From: Patescibacteria group bacterium
GTDB taxonomy: Bacteria; Patescibacteriota; WWE3; JAUXAW01; JAYEID01
DNA: 63,760 nucleotides
Direction: 5' to 3'
Assembly (NCBI GenBank): GCA_048621635.1
Contig: JBMCWH010000003.1
Span: forward strand, 1-63,760
Shown: positions 9,085 to 63,760 of the stretch, piece after piece
Layout of the letters: each line of letters opens with the position of its first letter
Numbering within the stretch: position 1 is the stretch's first letter
Program-made: the position numbers and the translations under genes
The notes under the pieces: generated by a model
The model's database searches: none
Told to the model about the DNA's origin: nothing
The model's input: only the letters and a program-made list of their open reading frames with translations

Positions 9085-9291
9085 AGAAATTAACTAAGTA
9101 TGAAAATTAAGAAAAAAAATTGCTCCGAATATTTTGACAAGGAGTTTTTAGCTCTGTAATTTTAACTTTAATTTTTGATGGGAAAATCCCTTGTTGTTTT
9201 TCAATCGGAGGAAAGTAGAAGTTTCGCAATTAGCTCGAAGTAAAATTTTCTAGCAGTGCTTCTGTTTGAGAGGTAGGTTAGTGCCAGAAGA

Positions 9292-9882
9292 TTAGAAGCG
9301 AAAGGTGTCTATTAAGAAAAGTAAATCACTTTGCAACAGTTGCAGTAGTTCCATGCCCGTGAAAATCATTAAACTTCCGATTGTGAACCATTTAATTGTT
9401 GGCTTGTTGATTTTTCTTGCGAGGTAGGTAAAAATTGGTCCGAGTATAATGCCGGGCAGAGGTGTCCAGAGTAGAAACTCGAATATTTCAATAATAGAAA
9501 CAACATGTGTTTTTATATTGGAACTTATAGTGGATAGTTTTTGGGAGATGGGATTACGAGGCTGTGTTTTGGAAGGGATTGTGCTTATTAGGGAGACAGG
9601 TTTGGCATGTACACAGCGGTATCCTGAGTAAAGATCGAATTTTGTATAGCGGTAGCCGGGTTTGAGGGAACAAAGAAGACCTTCTACGTAGAAGGTTGGG
9701 TGGATGTATGTTTTCCAGGGTGTCTCTTCTTCGTTGGATTCAGCGATGGGTAGAAAAGACATGTCCCCAGAGTATTTATGTCTTAGATATTTTGATAGGA
9801 TTAACTGGTCGAAAACAATCAAAAAGTGTAGTAAAAATATTCCCAAAGCAAACACAAATAAAGCTTTTCTTATTAATTTCAT
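9292..9882 (-). CDS. Hypothetical membrane protein
   Basis: 196 aa with an N-terminal signal/TM helix and two C-terminal TM helices. Preferred over the overlapping + strand ORFs. Confidence 0.4.
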   Translation of the reverse strand: MKLIRKALFVFALGIFLLHFLIVFDQLILSKYLRHKYSGDMSFLPIAESNEEETPWKTYIHPTFYVEGLLCSLKPGYRYTKFDLYSGYRCVHAKPVSLISTIPSKTQPRNPISQKLSTISSNIKTHVVSIIEIFEFLLWTPLPGIILGPIFTYLARKINKPTIKWFTIGSLMIFTGMELLQLLQSDLLFLIDTFRF

Positions 9883-10047
9883 CTGTTCTTATTCTAGTAT
9901 AACTTGTTTGTCTTGCTTTGTTGAGCAGTTGTTCTTTCCAGGTACTTTTTACCTTTGGTTACTTACCAATGGAATCTCTAATCAGGTTATATCTTTTTTC
10001 TTGGCAACTTATCTTGAGTTTTCTGTTATACTGTAAGGTACAAAGAA

Positions 10048-10554
10048 ATGACCGACAATACAGTTTTCTTCGACCAACCAGGATCCCAAAATACTGAAGA
10101 AGTTTTAGAAGTGGTAGAGAAGCAAGCACAGAAATTAGGAATTTCCACTCTGGTTATCGCTTCTACTAGCGGTTCTACTGCTTTAAAAGCATGGGAAAAG
10201 TTAGGAGATAAGTTGGAAATAATTGCTGTTGGTACCTACTACCGACGCTGTGAACCTGAAAAAGTTGAGAAATTTGAGAACAAGGACGGTAAGTTTATCT
10301 TTGCCTTTGAAGATCTAGACTATGATTATCCCGAGTTTTTGCAGAAGGAGTTACGGCAAGAAATAGGGCAGGGTGGAAAGGTAGCTTTAGAAGTTGTGGT
10401 GGCTGCAACTCAGGCAGGTCTAATTGATGAGGGGGAGAAGGCTATTGGTGTTGGTGGTGCTTATCCAGGAGCGGATACCGCTTTCTTGGTTAAGGCTACG
10501 GAAGAATTTGATCGTTCTAAGGTGGAAAAGATTCTTTGCTGCCCTAAGCATTAG
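10048..10554 (+). CDS. Pyruvate kinase alpha/beta (C-terminal) domain-like protein
   Basis: 168 aa. The N-terminal pattern (FFDQPGSQNTEEVLEVV...LVIASTSGSTA) resembles stand-alone PK_C-like proteins. Confidence 0.45.
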   Translation: MTDNTVFFDQPGSQNTEEVLEVVEKQAQKLGISTLVIASTSGSTALKAWEKLGDKLEIIAVGTYYRRCEPEKVEKFENKDGKFIFAFEDLDYDYPEFLQKELRQEIGQGGKVALEVVVAATQAGLIDEGEKAIGVGGAYPGADTAFLVKATEEFDRSKVEKILCCPKH

Positions 10555-10677
10555 ATTATCTGCATGATTGTTGCTTTTTTGCTTTTATCATTTAGGGGGG
10601 AATTAAGCTTTAATTGCAATTCCCCTGGTTGCGTTAGGTTACTTGATGCGTTATAGTGTGGGAAGTAGGCAGTATTT

Positions 10678-14310: not shown

Positions 14311-14339
14311 TTGACAAATGAATAATTATTCAATATAAT
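14311..14339 (+). promoter_or_regulatory. Consensus sigma-70 promoter with an embedded 14-bp palindrome
   Basis: TTGACA (14311-14316), an exact 17-nt spacer, then TATAAT (14334-14339). The spacer contains the perfect palindrome TGAATAATTATTCA (14319-14332). The promoter sits 22 nt upstream of the DUF134 start. Confidence 0.6.
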
Positions 14340-14361
14340 ACTTGTTGGAGGTTTTCCCATT

Positions 14362-14844
14362 ATGACTAAAACGAAGAAAAAGCGCGTTGTTCGCTTTGAT
14401 CCGAAAGTAACATATTTTAAGCCTCGTGGGGTTCCGCTGGCGGAATTAGAGGAAGTGGTGCTTAATGTTGAAGAATTGGAGGCGGTAAGATTGGCAAATG
14501 TCGAAGAATTTACTCAGACAGAAGCTGCGGGACAGATGGAGGTTTCCCAAAGTACGTTTCATCGTATTATTTCAACAGCTCATCAGAAGCTAGGAAAGGC
14601 TTTAATTAATGGTTGCTCTATAAAAGTGGAAGGGGGTGACTACAGAATGCCAAACGGAAGAGGACGCGGTGCTGGCCGCGGCGGTCGTGGGCGCCAAGGT
14701 GGGCCCTACTCTGCTGGTCCTGGCGGCACGTGCGTTTGTACAAACTGCGGACATAAGGAGCCGCACCGGGCTGGAGAACCTTGCTATAAGCGAGAGTGTC
14801 CTGAGTGCGGTAGTGCTATGGTTAGGAAACGAGAGGATAATTGA
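14362..14844 (+). CDS. DUF134 (UPF0251) predicted DNA-binding protein with an RGG-rich linker and a C-terminal Cys4 zinc ribbon
   Basis: The DUF134 core is FKPRGVPL...LNVEELEAVRL...TQ.EAA..M.VSQSTFHRI. It is followed by GRGRGAGRGGRGRQGG and then CVCTNCGH..CPECG. Confidence 0.75.
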   Translation: MTKTKKKRVVRFDPKVTYFKPRGVPLAELEEVVLNVEELEAVRLANVEEFTQTEAAGQMEVSQSTFHRIISTAHQKLGKALINGCSIKVEGGDYRMPNGRGRGAGRGGRGRQGGPYSAGPGGTCVCTNCGHKEPHRAGEPCYKRECPECGSAMVRKREDN

Positions 14845-14926
14845 GTTTTTGGCTAGTAATTTTTAACCTGGTAGTGGCGGTCGAGTTTTTAGATTTGTTT
14901 CGAAGGGGGGTGTTTTTAATTAAGTT

Positions 14927-15340
14927 ATGAAAATTTGTATTACATCTACCGGTAAAGATTTGCAATCTTTGGTTAGTTCCCGTTTTGGGAGATGTTCTTA
15001 TTTTTTAATTATTGATGCCGAGACCAAAGATGTTGAAGTAGTAGAAAATACTAATGTGCAAGCTTCAAGAGGTGCAGGTGTTGCCGCTTCTCAGGATATA
15101 GTTAATTCTGGTTGTGATGTTGTAATTTCAGGAAATATTGGTCCAAATGCTTTTTCCGTTTTGAACCAATCAGGGGTTGATGTGTTTATGGCTAGAAAAA
15201 ATGTTAGTTGCGAGGAAAATTTGCAAGCGTATAATCAAGATTCGCTAGAAAGGGCAACGGCAGAGTCAGCCCGTGGAGATGGTTTTGGTCGTGGTAGGAG
15301 GCAAGGCCGTGGTGGCGGGCGGAGAGGAGGACGTAGCTGA
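14927..15340 (+). CDS. NifB/NifX-like (dinitrogenase FeMo-cofactor-binding fold) protein with an RGG tail
   Basis: MKICITSTG..SRFGRCSYFLIID...GAGVAASQ...VISGNIGPNA pattern. The C-terminus is GFGRGRRQGRGGGRRGGRS. Confidence 0.75.
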   Translation: MKICITSTGKDLQSLVSSRFGRCSYFLIIDAETKDVEVVENTNVQASRGAGVAASQDIVNSGCDVVISGNIGPNAFSVLNQSGVDVFMARKNVSCEENLQAYNQDSLERATAESARGDGFGRGRRQGRGGGRRGGRS

Positions 15341-15663
15341 TGGCGAAAATTGCACTACCAGTAAATGGTGATGATATAGAAAAATTGGTAGCTAAACATT
15401 TTGGTTGGGCAAAAAATTATTTAATTTATGACACTGTTAGTGATGGTTTTGAGGTTGTTGCTAATCCCGAGGCAGAAGGAAAGAAGACATTACCACCAAA
15501 ATTTTTGGATCAGCACGGTGTAGATGCTGTTATCTGTTTTGATCTTGGTTCCCGCGCCGTTAATTTTTTTAATCAATTAGGTATTGATGTATTTAAGGCT
15601 GTTGGGAGTAGTTTGAAGGAGAATATCGGTAGATTTAAGAAAGGTCAGCTGGTTGTTTATTAA
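15340..15663 (+). CDS. NifB/NifX-like protein
   Basis: KIALPVNG...HFGWAKNYLIYD...DAVICFDLGSRAVNFF pattern. Its start overlaps the previous stop (TGATG). Confidence 0.75.
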   Translation: MAKIALPVNGDDIEKLVAKHFGWAKNYLIYDTVSDGFEVVANPEAEGKKTLPPKFLDQHGVDAVICFDLGSRAVNFFNQLGIDVFKAVGSSLKENIGRFKKGQLVVY

Positions 15664-15664
15664 T

Positions 15665-16594
15665 ATGGAAACCATTGCAATAACTGGAGGTAAAGGTGGT
15701 GTTGGTAAATCAACAGTTTCTGTTCTTCTTGCCAACAAGTTTAGGCGAGAAGGGAAGAAAGTGATGCTGGTTGATTTGGATGTGGAGTGTCCTAATGATC
15801 ACCTTTTGTTAGGTAGAGAATTAGCTAGTGTTGGGGAAAAAGTTTATGCTAAATTTCCTAAGCTGAACAAAGAGAAATGCACTAAGTGCTTGCATCGTGG
15901 GAGCGGAGCGACTTTACGGGGTGGTTTGTGTGTTGAAAAATGTCCTAACAATGCAATTTTCCAACCACCCGGAGAATATCCTCTCTTTATGCATGACCTT
16001 TGTTCGGGTTGTGGTCTTTGTTGGAATTTGTGTCCTTTTGGAGCTATTGAGATTGAGGAGAAGATTACGGGGGAGATATTTGTGAATCAGTTGGGTACAC
16101 CCGCTGCAGGAAAAACTTCCCCCGACGAGTCGGGAGAGGTTGGGGAGTGTGGTGAGGATTTCCCGTCGGCTTGGCTGGTGTCGGGAAGGTCAGTAGGTGT
16201 TGTGGAAGAAACAGGGCCTGTTGTTGCTGAAGTAAAAAAGTTTGCGTACCAATTGGCAGAAGAAAAAGGTGTCGATGTTATTTTGCTGGATACAGCGCCG
16301 GGGTTGCATTGTGCAGTTATCCGAGCACTTTGGGAAGTTGATAAAGCTTACGCAGTTACGGAGCCGACTCCGTTAGGCGCACATGATTTGAGACTTATTC
16401 TTAAGCTTTTGAAGAAGTTGAGGATACCAGCAAAAATAATTTTAAATCAAGCAGATTTAGGGGATCGAGATTCTGTTGATAATATTGCCCATAATTTAAA
16501 TACTGAGATTGCGTACGAGATTCCTTACTCTAAAGAAATTGTAAACGCTTATTCTAAAGGTAGGCTTTATGATTTTTCATTACAGCACTTCTAA
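15665..16594 (+). CDS. MinD/ParA-superfamily P-loop ATPase with an inserted 4Fe-4S ferredoxin domain
   Basis: Deviant Walker A (GGKGGVGKST) plus Cys clusters CTKC..C..C and CSGCGLCWNLCP. The ATG at 15665 lies 1 nt after the upstream stop. Confidence 0.8.
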   Translation: METIAITGGKGGVGKSTVSVLLANKFRREGKKVMLVDLDVECPNDHLLLGRELASVGEKVYAKFPKLNKEKCTKCLHRGSGATLRGGLCVEKCPNNAIFQPPGEYPLFMHDLCSGCGLCWNLCPFGAIEIEEKITGEIFVNQLGTPAAGKTSPDESGEVGECGEDFPSAWLVSGRSVGVVEETGPVVAEVKKFAYQLAEEKGVDVILLDTAPGLHCAVIRALWEVDKAYAVTEPTPLGAHDLRLILKLLKKLRIPAKIILNQADLGDRDSVDNIAHNLNTEIAYEIPYSKEIVNAYSKGRLYDFSLQHF

Positions 16595-16652
16595 ATAGAA
16601 GTTTGGATTTGCGCTGATATTTTTAACAATTTTGCAATTGAACAATCGAACC

Positions 16653-17819
16653 ATGTTAAGTAAACAACAAGTTTCCATAATTAGTACTGTTGCCAACGCG
16701 ACACTAGGTTTAGCAAAGGTGGTTGTGGGTATGGCTGCAAGCAGTTCAGCCCTAGTTGCTGAAGGTTTGCATTCTACTATTGATTTTGTTTCTTCAGGAA
16801 TAACTTTTTTAGGAATTCGTGTTGCTGAAAAGGAGCCGACTGAGAGACATCCCTATGGTTGGGGGAGAGCAGAGGTTTTGGCTAGTTTGGTGGTTGTGGT
16901 GTTTATTGGTTTAGCTGGTGTGGAAATTGTTCAGGAGGCAGTTACCTCTTTGCTTTCAGGTGACTATCTTCCCGTTAGCGGAGTGCTTTCCGTGGTTGTG
17001 ATGGTTGTGTCTGTAGTTGTTAATGAATTGATGGCCCGACTTAAAGTTAGGGTTGGTCAAAAACAAGAATCTTTAGCGCTCATTGCTGATGGAAAGCATT
17101 CTCGCGTTGATGTATATTCCTCTGGGGCCGCGCTGGTGGGAATCTTTTTAGCGCGATTTTTTCCTGTGCTAGATAGTGTTACTGCTTTTGGCGTAGGGAT
17201 TTATATTCTCTACGAAGCTATAGATTTAGGCAAAGAAGTAGGGGAAAATCTATTAGACATTGCAGATTTGGAGGCGGAGGAAGCTATTCGTGAGATTTGT
17301 GAGAAAGAACAAGTCGATTTGGCTGATTTACGGACTAGGAAGATTGGTTCCCTGACCCATGCGGAATTGGAGATAGTTATTCCTAAAGATGTGACAGCTG
17401 GGAAGGTGGACGATTTAGTTACTGATCTGCAAGAAACACTAGTTGAGAAAGTTCCTCATTTAGAATATGCAGTTGTTCAGATTCATGGGCATGGCAAACG
17501 GTCGAGAATGTTTCGTGGTGAGTGTGAAACTATTGAACGGGTTGGCCCAAAGAAGAAGGGCTACAGGGTGATTACTCCTTATCGTAATGGTTGTTTTTAC
17601 GAGGATTTTGGAGCTCCGGAGTATTTAGTTACTGATTATAGGGGTGAAAGAGATGTACAAAGAGAAATTGTTGAAAATCCTTACTTTAAAGTGGGCCGCG
17701 GTCACGGAGTTCGTTTTTCTCAGGCTGTTCAGGCAGATGAAGTGAGGACGGAAAATATAGGCGAGAACGCAAAAAGAGCACTCAAAGATTTGGGTGTGAG
17801 TATTTTAATTTTGAAATAA
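16653..17819 (+). CDS. Cation diffusion facilitator (CDF) transporter fused to a C-terminal NifX-like domain
   Basis: The CDF TM core has HSTIDFVSS, HPYGWGRAEV and DGKHSRVDV. The last ~100 aa (YRVITPY..FGAPEYLVTD...GRGHG...IGENAKRALKDLGVSI) repeat the pattern of the two NifX-like ORFs. Confidence 0.75.
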   Translation: MLSKQQVSIISTVANATLGLAKVVVGMAASSSALVAEGLHSTIDFVSSGITFLGIRVAEKEPTERHPYGWGRAEVLASLVVVVFIGLAGVEIVQEAVTSLLSGDYLPVSGVLSVVVMVVSVVVNELMARLKVRVGQKQESLALIADGKHSRVDVYSSGAALVGIFLARFFPVLDSVTAFGVGIYILYEAIDLGKEVGENLLDIADLEAEEAIREICEKEQVDLADLRTRKIGSLTHAELEIVIPKDVTAGKVDDLVTDLQETLVEKVPHLEYAVVQIHGHGKRSRMFRGECETIERVGPKKKGYRVITPYRNGCFYEDFGAPEYLVTDYRGERDVQREIVENPYFKVGRGHGVRFSQAVQADEVRTENIGENAKRALKDLGVSILILK

Positions 17820-17974
17820 CTTTTTCCAAAGAAGGTTGGACAGTTATTTTTAGTATATCTGTTGGTGGACAGATTTTTCTTACTTCATTGTAGCGGATTA
17901 CGGCTTGACAAATTTTTGCCTTCCTTCTAACATAGTTAAAGTGTCATTCAACTATTTAATTTTAATTAATTTTA

Positions 17975-18250
17975 ATGAAAGAACCACAGCATTTGTTTTT
18001 GTTTGAAAGAACCCGCTTACTTATTTTAAGAGCTTTGTTTAGGTGTAGCGAGGATGTCTGCGGTTGCGACCTTGTAGATAATTTGGGTGTTTCTAAATAC
18101 TTGGTCTCCTACCATATTAAAAAGTTGCGGGAGAAGGGTTTTGTAGATGAAGTTAAATGTGGGAACAGAAAGGAATACATTGTGGCTGAAGGTAAAAGGA
18201 AATTAGTTAAAAATGTACTAAGAATAACTGGTCTCTTGGATGATGAATAA
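17975..18250 (+). CDS. ArsR-family winged-helix transcriptional regulator
   Basis: 91 aa. The pattern RLLILRAL...CGCDL...GVSKYLVSYHIKKLREKGFV is typical of ArsR/SmtB. The 3' end overlaps the TrxR start. Confidence 0.7.
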   Translation: MKEPQHLFLFERTRLLILRALFRCSEDVCGCDLVDNLGVSKYLVSYHIKKLREKGFVDEVKCGNRKEYIVAEGKRKLVKNVLRITGLLDDE

Positions 18251-19181
18251 GCTTTCTGAAAAATATGACCTTGTAATTGTTGGTTCCGGTCCCGCTGGGT
18301 ATACTGCCGGAATATACGCAAGGCGGTTTAAATTAAAGACTTTGATTGTTGGTAAATCCCCGGGGGGGACAATTGCTGATGCTCATAAAGTGTGTAATTT
18401 TCCCACTTTTGGGGAGATAGCAGGGGAGGAGTTAACTCGCAGGATGCATGATGTGGCGAAAGATCTTGGGGTTAAGTCGGTGACGGCTAGGGTAGAAAAG
18501 ATAGGAAGGAAGGATTACGGCTTTCTTTTAGAAACGACATCTTCGGGGGAGGTTAAGGGGGACGCTGTGCTTTTAGCTACTGGGACAAAGCGAAGAAAGC
18601 TTAATTTGGAGCACGAGGATTATTTTTTGGGAAGGGGTGTTTCCTATTGCGCCACCTGTGATGGGCCGTTTTTCCAGGATAAGATTGTAGCAGTGGTGGG
18701 GGGCTCTAATGCAGCAACAACAGCGGCATTGTATCTTTCTGAAATTGCTAAAAGAGTTTATCTTATCTATCGAAAAGATGAGCTTAGAGGAGAGGAGATG
18801 TGGAAAGATCAGGTAGAGGAGAATCCTAAAATAGAGGTGGTTTATAATACCAATGTTGTTTCCCTGGGCGGGGAGAATAAGCTGGAGCGAATAGGCTTAG
18901 ATAACGAGTTTGCTGGTAAGGATTTTATTAGAGTTGATGGGCTTTTTGTTGAGATCGGCTCCGTTCCGGCTAATGCTTTAGCCAAGAAGATTGGTCTGGA
19001 TTTGAGTGAAGAGGGGTATCTTCGGGTGGGAGAGGATCAGTCTACTAACCTGCCCGGCTTTTACGGTGCGGGTGATATCACCACCGGTTCGGGAGGTCTG
19101 AAGCAAGTTATTACCGCTTGCAGTGAGGGAGCAATAGCGGCAACAAATATTTATAAATTTTTGAAATCGAAAGGTCCGTGA
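18240..19181 (+). CDS. Thioredoxin-reductase-like flavoprotein (low-Mr TrxR fold) with degenerate NADPH motifs
   Basis: FAD motif GSGPAGYTA and redox CATC are present. The second dinucleotide site reads GGSNAATTAA and IYRKDELR instead of the canonical GGGDSA and HRRxxFR. Confidence 0.75.
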   Translation: MMNKLSEKYDLVIVGSGPAGYTAGIYARRFKLKTLIVGKSPGGTIADAHKVCNFPTFGEIAGEELTRRMHDVAKDLGVKSVTARVEKIGRKDYGFLLETTSSGEVKGDAVLLATGTKRRKLNLEHEDYFLGRGVSYCATCDGPFFQDKIVAVVGGSNAATTAALYLSEIAKRVYLIYRKDELRGEEMWKDQVEENPKIEVVYNTNVVSLGGENKLERIGLDNEFAGKDFIRVDGLFVEIGSVPANALAKKIGLDLSEEGYLRVGEDQSTNLPGFYGAGDITTGSGGLKQVITACSEGAIAATNIYKFLKSKGP

Positions 19182-19184
19182 TAG

Positions 19185-19499
19185 ATGTCTCACATAATTG
19201 CTACTGACAAAAACTTTAAACAGGAAGTTCTTGAAGAGGAAAAGCCGGTGTTGGTTGATTTTTGGGCTCCTTGGTGCCGGCCCTGTCTTATTCTTTCTCC
19301 CATGATTGAGGAGCTTGAGGAGGAACTAGAGGGAAAAGTTTTGGTGGCGAAGCTTAATGTGGATGAGAATCGAGAGACTGCGATGCGCTATCGAATTCAG
19401 GGTATTCCGACGGTGCTGGTTTTTAAAGATGGGAAACTTCGGCAAAGGTTGGTCGGGGTGCGTTCGAAACAGGCTTATCGAAAGGCTTTGGAGCAGTAG
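19185..19499 (+). CDS. Thioredoxin with a non-canonical WCRPC active site
   Basis: 104 aa. Contains VLVDFWAPWCRPC and GIPTVLVFKDG. Confidence 0.85.
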   Translation: MSHIIATDKNFKQEVLEEEKPVLVDFWAPWCRPCLILSPMIEELEEELEGKVLVAKLNVDENRETAMRYRIQGIPTVLVFKDGKLRQRLVGVRSKQAYRKALEQ

Positions 19500-20997: not shown

Positions 20998-21819
20998 ATG
21001 AACAGTGGGGTAGAGAAGATTACAATTTTTCCTGGTTTTGATAAATTTGGTGAGAGAGAAAAGTTCGGCCGGCTTGAAATAGCTAGGGGAGAAATTGTGT
21101 CTATAGTTGGGCCTACTGGTGCCGGAAAGAGCCAACTTCTTTATGATATTGAGAAATTAGCCCAGGGGGATACTAAGAGTAAAAGAAAAGTGTTGATTAA
21201 TAATGTTTCTCCTGGCAAGAAATGGAAGTCTGATCCGCGGAGGAAGATTGTGGCATCTTTGTCGCAAAGTATGGATTTTTTGACAGACACTTCTGTTGGG
21301 GAATTTTTGGATATGCACCTTAAAGCGCGGGGACGGGAAACGGAAGCTAGTTTGATAAAGGAGGTAATTGATGAGGCTAATGAGATTACCGGCGAGCCCA
21401 TTTCTGCAAAAATGAATCTATTGAGCTTGTCCGGAGGTCAAAGTAGGGCTTTGATGGTTTCCGATATTGCAAATATAACTGTCTCTCCAATTATTTTAAT
21501 TGACGAGATTGAGAATGCAGGTATTAAGAAAAGTAAAGCTCTTCAGATTTTGATTGAGGAAGAGAAGATTGTCTTAATTGTTACCCATGATCCTTCTCTT
21601 GCTTTGAGTGCGGATAAACGCCTTGTTGTTGAAAATGGCGGAATTGTTAGAGTTTTGGATACTGCTCCCCAGGAAAAAGATATTGCCCATTACCTTAATT
21701 GGATAGAGGAACATAATTTGCGAATTAGAGAAAAAGTTCGCCAAGGTGAAGTGGTAGAAGAGCCCGGGATTTATTGTGTGGAGCCGACTAAATTTAGAAA
21801 TATTGAATTGAAAAATTAA
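20998..21819 (+). CDS. Stand-alone ABC-type ATPase (no permease adjacent)
   Basis: Walker A GPTGAGKS, signature LSGGQ, Walker B ILIDEIE and H-loop VTHD. Confidence 0.8.
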   Translation: MNSGVEKITIFPGFDKFGEREKFGRLEIARGEIVSIVGPTGAGKSQLLYDIEKLAQGDTKSKRKVLINNVSPGKKWKSDPRRKIVASLSQSMDFLTDTSVGEFLDMHLKARGRETEASLIKEVIDEANEITGEPISAKMNLLSLSGGQSRALMVSDIANITVSPIILIDEIENAGIKKSKALQILIEEEKIVLIVTHDPSLALSADKRLVVENGGIVRVLDTAPQEKDIAHYLNWIEEHNLRIREKVRQGEVVEEPGIYCVEPTKFRNIELKN

Positions 21820-21821
21820 CT

Positions 21822-22622
21822 ATGAAATTTGTTATCTTTGCTGGTACCCCCGGTGCGGGGAAAACTAGTATTATTAAGTTTGTCGTTGAGAACTTAGTTG
21901 GGAAGTTTGATGTCTTCTTTGCCAAGTTTGACTGTTTGCAAACTCCGGATGCTGATTTTATTTCCGAAAAATACGGAATTCCCGCCGTAAAGAAATTGGC
22001 CGGGGATCTTTGTCCCGATCACTTTACTGCGCTTGAAATTCCCAAAATTATTGAGAACAACAAAGATAAGGATCTTATTATTTTGGAAACGGCAGGCCTA
22101 TGTTTGCGGTGTTCTCCTTATGTTGAAGAGGGTTTAGGTATTAATATTTTGGATGTCACTTCGGGGAGTCCTGATCGGTATGGTCCGATCCTGACACAGG
22201 CCGATATTGTGGGAATTACTAAAGGAGACTTAATCTCTCAAGCGGAGCGGGAGATTTTCAGAGCGAAAGTGTTGGAAGTTAATCCCACAGCCAAAATTGT
22301 AGAAGCGAATGGCTTGACTGGCGAAGGCGCTGTTGATATTGGTAATTATATAAAACAGTCTTCTGATGTTGATGACCATCAGCTCACATTGAAACATTCC
22401 ATGCCTTCTGCAGTGTGTGGTTATTGTTACGGTAATAAAATTATAGATGAAGAAAAGGCGCACGAAAGGTATTTGGAAGGTAAAAAACTGAAAGCTTTAA
22501 TTCCGAATTTGAATTGTGGGAAGTGTGGATTTAAGTCCTGTAACGAGTTTATTCGCGCTGTTTTGGATGGGGAGGTTGAAAAGGAGCGTTGTCCATTTAT
22601 TAGAAAATCTAGTGGGGAGTGA
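21822..22622 (+). CDS. P-loop GTPase (G3E/SIMIBI-like) with a C-terminal putative Fe-S domain
   Basis: GTPGAGKTS, ILETAGLCLRC and GITKGDL. The C-terminal CGKCGFKSCNEFIRAV..ERCP resembles the RnfB-type Fe-S cluster domain. Confidence 0.6.
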   Translation: MKFVIFAGTPGAGKTSIIKFVVENLVGKFDVFFAKFDCLQTPDADFISEKYGIPAVKKLAGDLCPDHFTALEIPKIIENNKDKDLIILETAGLCLRCSPYVEEGLGINILDVTSGSPDRYGPILTQADIVGITKGDLISQAEREIFRAKVLEVNPTAKIVEANGLTGEGAVDIGNYIKQSSDVDDHQLTLKHSMPSAVCGYCYGNKIIDEEKAHERYLEGKKLKALIPNLNCGKCGFKSCNEFIRAVLDGEVEKERCPFIRKSSGE

Positions 22623-22675: not shown

Positions 22676-22999
22676 ATGGAGTATGTTTTCACTGACGACA
22701 ATTTTGAAGAGGAAGTTCTAGAAGAGGAACTTACTGTGTTAGTAGATTTTTGGGCACCCTGGTGTGGCCCGTGTAGAGTGATAGGCCCTGTAATTGAGGA
22801 ATTAGCAGAAGAGTTTGAAGGAAAGGTTAAGGTCGGGAAGTTGAATGTTGATGAGAATCCAGGTGTTGCGCAAAAATATTCAGTTATGAGTATACCGACG
22901 ATTCTTATTTTCCAAGAGGGGGAGCAAGCTAGGCAGTTAGTTGGGGTACGTTCTAAGGAGCAACTTTCCCAGGAACTTGAATCTCTTCTTGCTGCGTAA
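22676..22999 (+). CDS. trxA: Thioredoxin (canonical WCGPC)
   Basis: 107 aa. Contains VLVDFWAPWCGPC and SIPTILIFQEG. Confidence 0.9.
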   Translation: MEYVFTDDNFEEEVLEEELTVLVDFWAPWCGPCRVIGPVIEELAEEFEGKVKVGKLNVDENPGVAQKYSVMSIPTILIFQEGEQARQLVGVRSKEQLSQELESLLAA

Positions 23000-23075: not shown

Positions 23076-23942
23076 ATGGTTAAAATTGCTGTTGCTTCAG
23101 GAAAAGGCGGGGTGGGGAAAAGTATGCTTGCTTCTTCTCTAGCGATCCTTTTTTCCCAAGAAAAAAATATAGTGGCTTTAGATACTGATGTGGATGCTCC
23201 CAATTTGCATTTGTGGTTGGGGGAGGAAGAGAATTGGGATAAAGTAGAGAAATTGTCAACTAACCAGCGGCCAGTCATTGATCAAGAGGAGTGTACCGAT
23301 TGTGGTAAGTGCGTTGATGTTTGTCAGTTTGGTGCGCTTTCCATGGAAGGTGGTAGATTGAAAGTGAACAGTTATTTTTGCGAAGGATGTGGTGCATGTG
23401 CAATAGTATGTTCGGACGCTATCCGGATGAATTCTGTGGACAATGCGGAAATAAGAATAAAGGAAAGAACGGATTATGATTTTCCTTTGATTTCTGCCCA
23501 GCTTAAGCCGGGAGAGACTGGTTCGGGCAAGATCGTGGACGAAATAAAACTTCGTGCAGAGCAACTCGAATCAGATTTGGTTCTAATGGATGTTCCTGCC
23601 GGTACCGGTTGCCCGGTGATTTCTGCACTCAAAGATGTGGATTTTGCGGTTCTTATTACCGAACCAACACTATCTGGTTTAAGCGATCTCCGTAGGGTTT
23701 TAGAAATTGTTGATCATTTTCATATCACCTTTGGAGTAGTGATTAATAAGTGGGATATTAACCAAAGCCTGAGTAAGCAGATTGAGAAAGAGTTTGGGGA
23801 GCAGCTGCTTGGGAAAATCTCTTACGAAAAAGGGATTTTTCAGTCTATTGCCGATCTGACTCCTGTTATGGAATCAGATCTTCCTGCTGTAGGTGAGATT
23901 GAGAAGATTTTCGCCCAGTTGAAAGACGTTTCTTCCATTTAA
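23076..23942 (+). CDS. MinD/ParA-superfamily P-loop ATPase with a 2x[4Fe-4S] ferredoxin insert (second copy)
   Basis: SGKGGVGKS, then CTDCGKCVDVCQ and CEGCGACAIVCS. Paralogous to 15665-16594. Confidence 0.8.
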   Translation: MVKIAVASGKGGVGKSMLASSLAILFSQEKNIVALDTDVDAPNLHLWLGEEENWDKVEKLSTNQRPVIDQEECTDCGKCVDVCQFGALSMEGGRLKVNSYFCEGCGACAIVCSDAIRMNSVDNAEIRIKERTDYDFPLISAQLKPGETGSGKIVDEIKLRAEQLESDLVLMDVPAGTGCPVISALKDVDFAVLITEPTLSGLSDLRRVLEIVDHFHITFGVVINKWDINQSLSKQIEKEFGEQLLGKISYEKGIFQSIADLTPVMESDLPAVGEIEKIFAQLKDVSSI

Positions 23943-24024: not shown

Positions 24025-25122
24025 ATGAGCAAGATCTTTTCTTCGTTTTTTATCTTGTTAATTTTTTTTTGTTTGTTCTTGGTTACTCCTTTCCTTCTGT
24101 TGGCTCAAGGCCAACAGGCAAGCGAAAGCGCTGTTTTGCAACCTTCTGAAACGACTTTTTTTGAAGGCACAGTTGTAGCAGTTGAAGAAACGGATTTCTT
24201 ACAAAACTTACAAGTTGCTATTAGTAGTGGGGAGCTTGCGGGCGAAACCGTGCTAGTTTCTGTTGGAGGTATGGAAGGAAAAGTTAGTGAGAGCGAAATT
24301 TCTGTTGGGGACCGGGTTCTTCTGGGGAAGGTGGGCGAAACTTTTTATGTGCATGACTTCCTTCGTAAGAAGGCTTTGTTTTGGTTATTTATGCTTTTCC
24401 TCGGTGTTGGAGTTTTGGTTGCTGGCAGGGCAGGTATAAGTTCTTTTGTTGGATTAGCAATGTCTTTCTTGGTGATCTTGAAATTTATTCTCCCCCGCAT
24501 ATTAGTGGGTTGTGATCCGGTAGGAACAGTTGTTTTAGCTTCTTTTCTTCTTGTTCCTTTTAATTTTTATCTATCTCACGGTTTTAATCGAAAGACAACT
24601 GTGGCTATTGGAAGTACCTTGGTAGCTATATTGTTGGGGGGTTTGTTGGCGCAAGGGTTTACAGAATTTGCTAATCTCACGGGTTTTGCTAGTGAAGCTA
24701 CTAGTTTTCTTAAGGCGTCAGGCGCAGATATACCAGATATGCGGGGTTTGGTTTTAGCAGGTATTATTATTGGTTTTTTTGGTATTTTGGATGATGTAAC
24801 AATTGCGCAAGCAAGTCTTGTTGTTCAATTAAAGGAGGCAAAGCCTTCGGCCACTTTTGGTGAACTTTTTTCCCGGGGACTTCGGGTGGGTAAAGATCAC
24901 ATTGCTTCTGTAATCAACACTTTGTTTTTGGTTTATGCTGGAGCTGCTTTACCTTTGCTGTTGCTTTTTGTTTATACAGAACAGCCTTTGGGGCTTATTT
25001 TGAATACAGAGCCGGTTGCGGAAGAGATAGTTCGTACTTTGGTAGGAAGTATTGCATTAATCTCAGCCGTACCTTTGACTACTTTTCTAGCTTGTGCATT
25101 TGCAACTGAAGGCTCTTCTTGA
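24025..25122 (+). CDS. YibE/F-family membrane protein
   Basis: 365 aa with a signal/TM helix, a soluble N-terminal domain and about 7 TM helices. Contains GILDDVTIAQAS and GKDHIASVINTLFLVYAGAALP. Confidence 0.7.
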   Translation: MSKIFSSFFILLIFFCLFLVTPFLLLAQGQQASESAVLQPSETTFFEGTVVAVEETDFLQNLQVAISSGELAGETVLVSVGGMEGKVSESEISVGDRVLLGKVGETFYVHDFLRKKALFWLFMLFLGVGVLVAGRAGISSFVGLAMSFLVILKFILPRILVGCDPVGTVVLASFLLVPFNFYLSHGFNRKTTVAIGSTLVAILLGGLLAQGFTEFANLTGFASEATSFLKASGADIPDMRGLVLAGIIIGFFGILDDVTIAQASLVVQLKEAKPSATFGELFSRGLRVGKDHIASVINTLFLVYAGAALPLLLLFVYTEQPLGLILNTEPVAEEIVRTLVGSIALISAVPLTTFLACAFATEGSS

Positions 25123-60304: not shown

Positions 60305-61944
<1,640 letters not shown>

Positions 61945-62246: not shown

Positions 62247-62323
62247 GCGCGTGTAGCTCAGCGGCTTAGAGCACTTCTCTGATAAGGAAGGGGTCCGTGG
62301 TTCGAGTCCACGCACGCGCACCA
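62247..62323 (+). tRNA. tRNA-Ile (GAT) in the 16S-23S spacer, CCA encoded
   Basis: GCGCGTG/CACGCGC acceptor, anticodon loop CTGATAA, CGTGG-TTCGAGT-CCACG T arm. Confidence 0.9.
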
Positions 62324-62681: not shown

Positions 62682-62758
62682 GGGGCTGTGGCGCAGTTGG
62701 CTAGCGCACCACATTTGCAGTGTGAAGGTCGTGGGTTCGAATCCCACCAGCTCCACCA
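62682..62758 (+). tRNA. tRNA-Ala (TGC) in the 16S-23S spacer, CCA encoded
   Basis: GGGGCTG/CAGCTCC acceptor with the G3:U70 Ala identity pair, and anticodon loop TTTGCAG. Confidence 0.9.

Positions 62759-63032: not shown

Positions 63033-63760
<728 letters not shown>

Follow-up and report, generated by a model that had tools for sequence, protein, structure and literature searches.

The orange protein (ORP) complex of Desulfovibrio vulgaris unites Orp3 and Orp4 (two [4Fe-4S] motifs) with the PF02579 proteins Orp5 and Orp8 and with MrpORP (PMC6345978). MrpORP is polar and transfers Fe-S clusters to Orp3-Orp4-Orp8, and the complex has only 'putatively' been linked to cell division (PMC6345978). 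The regulator OrpR senses redox potential via a Cys-ligated [4Fe-4S] cluster, the operons being on at low potential (PMC8359166). In IssA of Pyrococcus furiosus, the same globular domain carries a cationic, glycine- and aromatic-rich tail, and large particles of thioferrate serve to store Fe and S; non-thermophilic homologues of IssA with high isoelectric point and glycine-rich tails form an uncharacterised clade, 'IssX' (PMC5524996). Two IssA homologues, Mvol_0689 and Mvol_0693, are raised in Methanococcus voltae grown on pyrite (FeS2) (PMC8516115). Here we describe a five-gene operon in which protein types of these systems are joined to a cation-diffusion-facilitator (CDF) exporter. It lies at positions 14311-17819 of a 63,760-nt stretch of DNA from a Patescibacteria group bacterium (contig JBMCWH010000003.1), the whole of which we call the window. 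An earlier annotation of the letters alone, referred to below as the sequence-only reading, had held that no function was established for genes of this kind. This was too strong, since the ORP complex, MrpORP and IssA provide partial experimental anchors (PMC6345978, PMC5524996, PMC8359166).

What might such an operon do? We read it as a version, in candidate phyla radiation (CPR) bacteria, of an ORP/IssA-type module for metal sulfide, most likely iron-sulfur or thioferrate-like, coupled to a divalent-cation exporter, and would give this reading a probability of about one half. We infer its functions, here and throughout, from sequence, structure prediction and gene context. The role in handling a metal or metallocluster, rather than in building FeMo-co (the iron-molybdenum cofactor), that the sequence-only reading had favoured is supported; trafficking, storage and detoxification are not separable by sequence alone.

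The five genes share one orientation and lie downstream of a sigma-70 promoter on the plus strand, TTGACA-17 nt-TATAAT (14311-14339, consensus score 12/12). The whole 63.8-kb window holds one perfect match to this pattern against 0.03 expected by chance. A GGAGG on the same strand (14347-14351) precedes the ATG at 14362 of the first gene, which encodes a DUF134 (UPF0251) regulator with a sigma-4-like helix-turn-helix (HTH) domain (14362-14844, plus strand; PF02001, E 2e-23). It is followed on the plus strand by NifX-like 1 (14927-15340; PF02579, E 2.5e-24), NifX-like 2 (15340-15663; PF02579, E 1.2e-19), a MinD/Mrp-type P-loop ATPase with a 2x[4Fe-4S] insert (15665-16594, insert at about 15878-16054), called MinD-Fer4 below, and the CDF exporter (16653-17819). 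Promoter and genes were thus found where the sequence-only reading had placed them. The domains that it had named score well above the Pfam thresholds, with 83 bits for DUF134 against PF02001 (cut-off 27) and 85.8 and 70.9 bits for NifX-like 1 and 2 against PF02579 (cut-off 26.3). The overlapping or 1-nt junctions that it described hold for two of the four: NifX-like 1 and 2 overlap by 1 nt (TGATG), and 1 nt separates NifX-like 2 from MinD-Fer4, but 82 nt lie between DUF134 and NifX-like 1, and 58 nt between MinD-Fer4 and the CDF ATG used by homologues (37 nt to an upstream TTG). Three parts of the proteins had escaped it, namely a Cys6/His module, here termed Ztail, fused to DUF134; an IssA-like cationic tail on NifX-like 1, one of the two small NifX-fold proteins that it had rightly recognised; and a third NifX-like domain carried by the CDF itself, by which the proposed hard link to a metal exporter becomes stronger still.

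Curated models place the last protein firmly within the CDF family (PF01545, E 2.5e-47, with a ZT_dimer domain; 224 bits against TIGR01297, cut-off 82). Its best NCBIfam models are MamB, MntE, MamM and FieF, all above ZitB and DmeF, and the nearest solved sequence is that of E. coli FieF/YiiP (E 7e-20). In its AlphaFold2 model (predicted local distance difference test, pLDDT, 81.6), six transmembrane helices are joined to a cytoplasmic alpha-beta dimerisation domain. The transport site A is formed by H40, D44, H149 and D153, which align with D45, D49, H153 and D157 of YiiP and are nearly invariant. A Foldseek search with the whole model returned CDF structures only, YiiP and ZnT, and is thus silent on the C-terminal domain.

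This domain is an extension of some 95 residues (about 17538-17816) behind a disordered linker, with the AlphaFold2 topology beta-beta-beta-alpha-beta-alpha-beta. Scored alone against PF02579 it reaches 14.9 bits (E 0.033), below the cut-off. Its profile matches that of the free NifX-like proteins in hhalign (98.4%, E 4e-15), and PF02579 is on record for ten distant homologues (P0064, P0066, P0067, P0069, P0072, P0074, P0076, P0085, P0095 and P0097). By these profile matches, we assign the domain to the PF02579 superfamily. Three of its residues, N342, P343 and G352, are invariant, and homologues with as little as 36% identity keep the extension, which is present in over 70 clusters. When 1.84 billion representatives were searched with the domain, only 31 clusters (50% identity) were returned, most of them proteins of about 395-424 residues matched at the C-terminus; on this small number we regard it as a distinct subfamily that is small and attached to CDFs. 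In the literature, no account of a CDF-NifX fusion was found, and only unrelated co-mentions turned up, for example D. magneticus FmpB.

Is this arrangement peculiar to one genome? An alignment scan of species-representative genomes with the CDF-NifX protein gave 80 loci, nearly all of them from CPR bacteria and a few from Archaeoglobales. These were annotated with hidden Markov models (HMMs) built from the window proteins, on the basis of naive open reading frame (ORF) calling and with organism labels as written in the records. Neighbours were counted on the same strand within 5 kb at the 38 fusion loci that have at least 3 kb on both sides. The fusion is accompanied by a free NifX-like gene in 31 of the 38, by a MinD-Fer4 gene likewise in 31 (MinD counts, here and below, are slightly inflated, as the 'MinD' HMM also takes a few ferredoxin-only ORFs), by DUF5320 in 27, by Ztail in 25 and by DUF134 in 24, and it lacks all five in only 3. 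The commonest order is DUF5320, Ztail, NifX, CDF-NifX, MinD, a gap, MinD and DUF134. In the clade of the window (L001, L002 and L009-L012) it is DUF134-Ztail, NifX, in some cases a further NifX, MinD, CDF-NifX and a second MinD. The gene order of the window itself is met again in L001, L002 and L009 and in the DPANN archaea L157 and L158. Among complete CPR and DPANN genomes, CP179888, CP179889, OY969116, OY970175 and OZ246408 are examples in which the module is present. A scan anchored on DUF134 (again 80 loci) found this family in CPR bacteria, DPANN archaea, Methanocellales and Clostridia, with DUF5320 adjacent in 53 loci, MinD in 29, NifX in 26 and CDF-NifX in 13. The linkage predicted by the sequence-only reading to be conserved in related genomes therefore holds, on this neighbourhood check, in dozens of genomes.

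Four fusions occur among these components: CDF-NifX, CDF-Ztail, DUF134-Ztail and, in Methanocellales, NifX-DUF5320. Domain fusions of this kind suggest that the proteins interact, and it is because of them that we treat regulator, carriers and exporter as one machine. In CDF-Ztail (L181, 4814-5869; L191, 1178-2248), the C-terminus of the exporter is formed by Ztail in place of the NifX-like domain. The NifX-DUF5320 fusion is found, for example, in a Methanocellales metagenome-assembled genome (L172, 5995-10910), where it follows genes for a DUF134 protein with a zinc ribbon, an Mrp/ApbC-like ATPase, a 2x[4Fe-4S] ferredoxin and DUF5320, and is itself followed by NifX and two MinD-Fer4 genes; TGAATATATATTCA stands 18 nt upstream of DUF134 there.

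Two further loci extend the gene content around the exporter. In L044 (7600-11242), the order is ArsR, a SufC-like ATPase, a SufB/D-like protein, Ztail and CDF-NifX, with the palindrome TCAATAATTATTGA 23 nt upstream of the ArsR start; through this gene order, SUF genes for Fe-S assembly are directly linked to the module. The closest relative (L001) encodes, at 9214-10671, a protein of 485 residues, placed between the CDF and the second MinD-Fer4. An N-terminal thioredoxin-like part with a CxxC motif is joined in it to a part with multiple transmembrane segments, and the latter part resembles CcdA/DsbD by eye. The counterpart of this protein's position in the window is occupied by arsR-trxB-trx genes.

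Which of the known PF02579 proteins do the two free NifX-like proteins resemble? The nearest solved sequences of NifX-like 1 are MTH1175 (E 2e-24), TM1290 (E 4e-21) and the ORP of D. gigas (E 6e-16), and its best NCBIfam match is MrpORP's Di-Nase domain. It is MTH1175/IssA-type and orange-protein sequences to which the pair comes closest, rather than NifX/NafY, and this supports the earlier rejection of a role in FeMo-co synthesis. NifX-like 1 ends in a cationic Gly/Arg tail of 30 residues (residues 108-137, 15248-15337) with 9 Arg, 10 Gly and a net charge of +6, which NifX-like 2 lacks. Net-positive Gly/Arg tails are present on 48 of 74 distinct free NifX-like proteins of these clusters, and aromatic-rich Gly/Arg segments are found in the separate DUF5320 proteins of relatives.

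The ATPase is Orp3/Orp4-like and of the COG1149 type (CbiA 6e-18, ParA/NUBPL 1e-15, Fer4 3e-11). Invariant among its orthologues are the deviant Walker A motif GKGGVGKS, the eight ferredoxin cysteines and a Cys after Walker B. A MinD proper, acting in septum-site determination, was considered and rejected, as the equivalog cut-offs are missed widely: 52 bits against minD_bact (cut-off 213) and 43 against minD_arch (cut-off 202), where the P-loop region alone aligns. Matches to the MrpORP model NF041136 are likewise partial, at 40-50 bits for a cut-off of 450. An 11-residue insert, LHRGSGATLRG (15878-15940, residues about 72-89), separates Cys 2 and Cys 3 of the first CxxCxxC; none of the four orthologues and none of the paralogues has it, and it could interfere with the first cluster site or result from faulty assembly. 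A second MinD-Fer4 paralogue, making up an Orp3/Orp4-like pair, is encoded 5 kb downstream of the operon (23076-23942, plus strand; local HMM; CbiA 4e-19, ParA, Fer4). Its orthologue in L001, L009, L010 and L012 is the second MinD, behind the CDF, and it is probably part of the same functional set as the operon.

The DUF134 protein consists of the HTH domain (residues 3-95), a disordered Gly/Arg linker (about 96-120) and Ztail (about 121-157; 14722-14832). Its YFKP motif (Y16, F17, K18, P19) is invariant. The AlphaFold2 model (pLDDT 83, above 90 in the HTH) shows three helices, disorder over residues 99-116 and a tail folded as a beta-ribbon. Foldseek matches are to sigma region 4 and DeoR HTH domains and are weak (E about 0.1), and no solved homologue was found by sequence. 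The tail that follows the linker reads TCVCTNCGHKEPHRAGEPCYKRECPECG; C126, C129, C146 and C149 are invariant in it, C124 and C141 nearly so, and it is modelled as a zinc-ribbon-like beta structure. In most related loci, Ztail is a separate gene of about 70 codons. The Ztail profile retrieves 3840 database clusters at E <= 0.001, almost none of which bears a Pfam annotation. Besides the window, about 100 protein clusters have the DUF134-Ztail fusion; a sample of them was aligned. Searches of the literature for DUF134, UPF0251, COG1342, DUF5320 and the box sequences described below returned essentially nothing relevant.

How is the operon controlled? Inside the promoter spacer lies a perfect 14-bp palindrome, TGAATAATTATTCA (14319-14332, without strand), a putative operator. 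Even in the degenerate form TGRRTANNTAYYCA it has no second copy in the window (0.04 expected), so that the search for further copies called for by the sequence-only reading yielded none within these 63.8 kb. The identical 14-mer occupies the same promoter position in five genomes, those of the window and of L001, L009, L010 and L011; in these relatives the flanking bases, and even the -10 hexamer, vary, but the -35 hexamer and the palindrome are kept. L071 and L083 have TGAACATAGGTTC(A/T) at the corresponding place. Strictly perfect palindromes were scarce upstream of distant clusters, and we therefore scored the 160 nt upstream of every cluster gene-run head against TGAATAnnTATTCA, with random windows from the same loci as background. 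A 12/12 match precedes 15 of the 105 heads of DUF134-containing gene runs, against 0.24% of random windows. Three further matching heads are DUF5320 genes with DUF134 behind a longer gap, and the near-variants TGGGTATATATTCA and TGAATATATACTCA are also frequent upstream of cluster gene runs.

The position of this box follows the promoter architecture of its host. In CPR bacteria, it lies 3' of TTGACA, with the -10 element inside or just past it. In DPANN archaea and Methanocellales, it directly follows a TATA-like element, TTTAAATA, and is extended to TTA-TGAATATATATTCA-TAA. Variants of the form TGAATATATATTCA or TGAACATAGGTTCA precede DUF134 operons in both CPR bacteria and DPANN archaea, and it is this recurrence that makes the box probably the operator of DUF134. 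Many of the box-bearing units consist of DUF5320 and DUF134 only, so that DUF134 is the sole DNA-binding protein there.

Several observations weigh against the reading of the operon as an iron-sulfide module. Zn2+ CDFs typically have H-D-H-D at site A, and the cargo could thus be Zn rather than Fe; overall similarity would align the exporter with the Fe/Zn/Mn branch, against this Zn-type site. The tail of NifX-like 1 has a single Phe, so that the aromatics stressed for IssA are almost lacking, and Gly/Arg-rich segments could equally bind nucleic acids. The motif FGxC is present in 24 of the 74 NifX-like proteins of the clusters, and most are without conserved Cys ligands; as FGxC is not general, we do not assume a covalently ligated cluster. 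The exporter fusion stands alone in L006, L019 and L022, and the MinD counts err on the high side. Finally, TTGACA-NN-TGAATAATTATTCA was retrieved by a collection-wide search from 41 genome stretches, of which about 30 are promoters of Firmicutes or Tenericutes preceding cadC-like ArsR genes (EMCVCD motif), HMA-domain genes or CadA-type P-type ATPases.

Since the identical 14-mer stands at Firmicutes cadC promoters, its core is also an operator of the ArsR/SmtB type, and an ArsR-type repressor is a live rival. On this explanation, which we regard as the leading alternative and yet unlikely, the locus is an efflux operon like CzrA-CzrB or CadC-CadA: an ArsR, that of the window or another, binds TGAATAATTATTCA and comes off the DNA on taking up Zn, Cd or another thiophilic metal, so that the CDF is induced, with the NifX-like, MinD and DUF134 proteins as passengers. 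A candidate repressor is at hand. An ArsR/SmtB-family gene (17975-18250, plus strand; HTH_5 E 5e-11), whose product has the CxC motif in an alpha-3 type CGCDL sequence, begins 155 nt past the CDF stop and heads an arsR-trxB-trx unit (17975-19499), its stop overlapping the trxB start by 11 nt. The ArsR of L044 has the same 'LVSYH' recognition helix and is preceded by the related palindrome TCAATAATTATTGA, with SufC, SufBD, Ztail and CDF-NifX following, and the H-D-H-D site of the exporter would also suit Zn efflux. The window ArsR, however, has the recognition helix SYHIKKL and not the SHQL of the CadC type, and its own promoter-like site (17905-17933, score 10/12) is without a TGAATA box. No ArsR gene was found in the fetched flanks, as distinct from the whole genomes, of L001, L009, L010 and L011, the four relatives with the identical box; one lies near just 4 of 88 CDF loci and 2 of 80 DUF134 loci. 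TGAATA half-sites, moreover, precede DUF5320-DUF134 units of bacteria and archaea that encode no DNA-binding protein other than DUF134, and the fusion of the CDF to NifX-like or Ztail domains would be left unexplained. On balance, we clearly favour DUF134 over ArsR as the probable box-binding protein. The promoter-operator TTGACA-NN-TGAATAATTATTCA-A-(C)TATAAT is in itself strikingly conserved as a cadC-type element across some 30 genomes of Firmicutes, Tenericutes and Gastranaerophilales (L089-L129; for example L092, 4158-4179, and L102, 59-80).

Could the proteins instead serve cell division or the organisation of the cell pole? The same protein types occur in the Desulfovibrio ORP complex, with its putative role in division and its polar MrpORP (PMC6345978), and the ATPases belong to the MinD/ParA superfamily. 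They might position the complex at the membrane, with the CDF serving, through its NifX-like domain, as anchor instead of homeostatic exporter, as a soluble-complex domain on a membrane protein would tether it. We consider this improbable. The MinD equivalog is missed widely (52 bits against 213), the neighbourhood contains no min, fts or division genes, and a complete, nearly invariant CDF transport site argues for retained transport. The genes around the operon are of redox and metal type (Trx, TrxB, a CobW-like GTPase), as are the Suf genes of L044.

A carrier of Mo, W or Cu thiometalates is more improbable still. The NifX-like proteins would then bind Mo/W-S(-Cu) clusters for supply or detoxification, with the CDF removing the partner cation. 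This idea draws on the D. gigas orange protein, which binds [S2MoS2CuS2MoS2] (PMC6345978) and is the third-best solved match of NifX-like 1 (E 6e-16). Against it, genes for a Mo/W cofactor, for ModABC/TupABC or for copper were not seen in the examined region. Nor are molybdoenzymes generally known from CPR genomes, and CDFs are not known to transport Mo, W or Cu(I).

A remnant or accessory of FeMo-co biosynthesis, with the function of NifX, NafY or NifB, can be dismissed, as only the Pfam family name of PF02579 ('Dinitrogenase iron-molybdenum cofactor') speaks for it, whereas the curated cut-offs are missed (NifX proper, TIGR02663, 20 bits against 112; AnfO, 16 against 129), the module is typical of CPR and DPANN organisms, and no nif genes were found in the examined region or, with the cluster HMMs, in about 170 related loci, just as the sequence-only reading had seen no nitrogenase genes (none among the ORFs examined at 12-25 kb, the annotation of the rest of the window being non-exhaustive).

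For the ORP/IssA-type module with exporter, we propose the following mechanism. A DUF134 dimer would sit on TGAATAnnTATTCA between -35 and -10 and repress its own operon. Occupancy of the Cys6/His tail by metal or Fe-S would alter DNA binding, so that repression is relieved or strengthened, in parallel to the Fe-S-sensing OrpR of the Desulfovibrio orp operons. The NifX-like proteins would hold anionic Fe-S or metal-sulfide species non-covalently, their Gly/Arg tails neutralising charge as proposed for IssA and thioferrate. The Fe-S ATPase, or both ATPases, may load, unload or reduce this pool in the manner of Mrp/NBP35-type carriers. The CDF, FieF/MamB-like with its H-D-H-D site, would export surplus Fe2+ and/or Zn2+ in exchange for protons, and its NifX-like domain may dock the carriers or sense how full the cluster pool is, thereby gating export.

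A wider proposal, which we put forward tentatively and hold to be somewhat doubtful, is that DUF134, DUF5320, Ztail, the IssA-like NifX proteins, MinD-Fer4 and the NifX-tipped CDF are one ancient module under a single operator, TTA-TGAATAnnTATTCA-TAA, embedded in bacterial and archaeal promoters alike, and that it is the main system of CPR and DPANN organisms for buffering and exporting iron sulfide. Fe and S would then be stored as a protein-coated polyanionic mineral, with any surplus vented through the CDF. CPR and DPANN genomes are minimal, yet many of those surveyed retain the module. The storage and buffering of iron and sulfide in anaerobes is the field to which it would belong, IssA being the only characterised thioferrate store. 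A CDF with a cytoplasmic cluster-carrier domain would link metal export physically to Fe-S carrier proteins. Ztail represents a large family of small Cys-rich proteins that is fused, depending on lineage, to the regulator or to the exporter. The uncharacterised DUF134 family gains a candidate operator conserved in bacterial and archaeal promoters, and this conservation should render its regulon predictable in hundreds of genomes.

The window is bacterial, with a 16S rRNA gene at 60305-61942 and a 23S gene beginning at 63034, and the closest protein relatives come from metagenome bins of Patescibacteria (CPR). The 16S match extends over 1638 nt for a model of 1533 positions and thus has about 100 extra bases; insertions in rRNA genes have been reported for CPR. 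Two tRNA genes (62247-62320 and 62682-62755) lie between 16S and 23S. Across positions 1-63760, almost all 2-kb bins have a strongly positive GC skew (mostly 0.1 to 0.33), the cumulative curve climbs almost without break, and the likely genes at about 12-25 kb are on the plus strand with one exception. From skew and gene orientation, the window is probably one replichore with strong gene-strand bias. Beyond the arsR unit follow an ABC-type ATPase (20998-21819), a CobW/HypB/UreG-type GTPase with a C-terminal PF04060 'putative Fe-S cluster' domain (21822-22622), a second thioredoxin (22676-22999), the second MinD-Fer4 and, after it as in L001, a YibE/F membrane protein (24025-25122). Operon and downstream genes together form a redox/metal gene island of about 11 kb.

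How does the locus compare with the systems already described? With the ORP complex of Desulfovibrio vulgaris Hildenborough, it shares the clustering of MinD-superfamily 2x[4Fe-4S] ATPases (Orp3/Orp4) with small PF02579 proteins (Orp5/Orp8), a likeness in protein types judged by description. That the ORP complex is anaerobe-specific and has a dedicated regulator with a Cys-ligated sensor is a further likeness. The window differs in having no Mrp-DiNase fusion (the 40-50 bits against NF041136, cut-off 450), a sigma-70 promoter with DUF134 in place of sigma-54, OrpR and IHF, and one operon instead of two divergent ones. PMC6345978 and PMC8359166 name no CDF with a fused NifX-like domain as a component of the ORP complex, and no small proteins of the DUF5320 and Ztail types. 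As there is neither an MrpORP fusion nor control by sigma-54/OrpR, we classify the operon as an ORP/IssA-type variant and not as a Desulfovibrio ORP complex in the strict sense. To IssA it is linked by the IPR003731/PF02579 globular domain followed by a disordered, cationic, glycine-rich tail, by MTH1175, which is both the template of the IssA model and the nearest solved sequence of NifX-like 1, and by the response of homologues to Fe/S supply in methanogens. The likeness is drawn from sequence matches; the tail in the window is short (30 residues) and aromatic-poor, and partners of the CDF, MinD-Fer4 and DUF134 types are not mentioned for IssA (PMC5524996, PMC8516115).

The remaining comparisons concern single parts. 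With the PF02579 domains of NifX, NafY and the NifB C-terminus, the window proteins have a fold superfamily in common, one that binds complex anionic Fe-S clusters without full Cys ligation; they differ in scoring below the nifX cut-offs and in belonging to non-diazotrophic organisms without nitrogenase context. ArsR/SmtB efflux operons such as CzrA-CzrB and CadC-CadA resemble the locus in a TGAA-N6-TTCA-type palindrome over a strong promoter with a metal exporter downstream, in the identical 14-mer of Firmicutes cadC promoters and in the ArsR gene that adjoins the window operon. Unlike in those operons, this ArsR is not the first gene and relatives do not keep it beside the operon, the box goes with DUF134 in two domains of life, and four non-efflux genes are included. 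The exporter shares with FieF/YiiP and MamB/MamM six transmembrane helices, the cytoplasmic dimerisation domain, the site A tetrad and the HPYG loop. It departs from FieF/YiiP in its H-D-H-D site A (D-D-H-D in FieF/YiiP) and in its NifX-like domain of about 95 residues, into which the closest matched solved CDF structures do not extend. Set beside all of these systems, three elements appear to be new: a CDF with a fused carrier domain, the Ztail family with its alternative fusions, and an operator that tracks DUF134 across domains of life.

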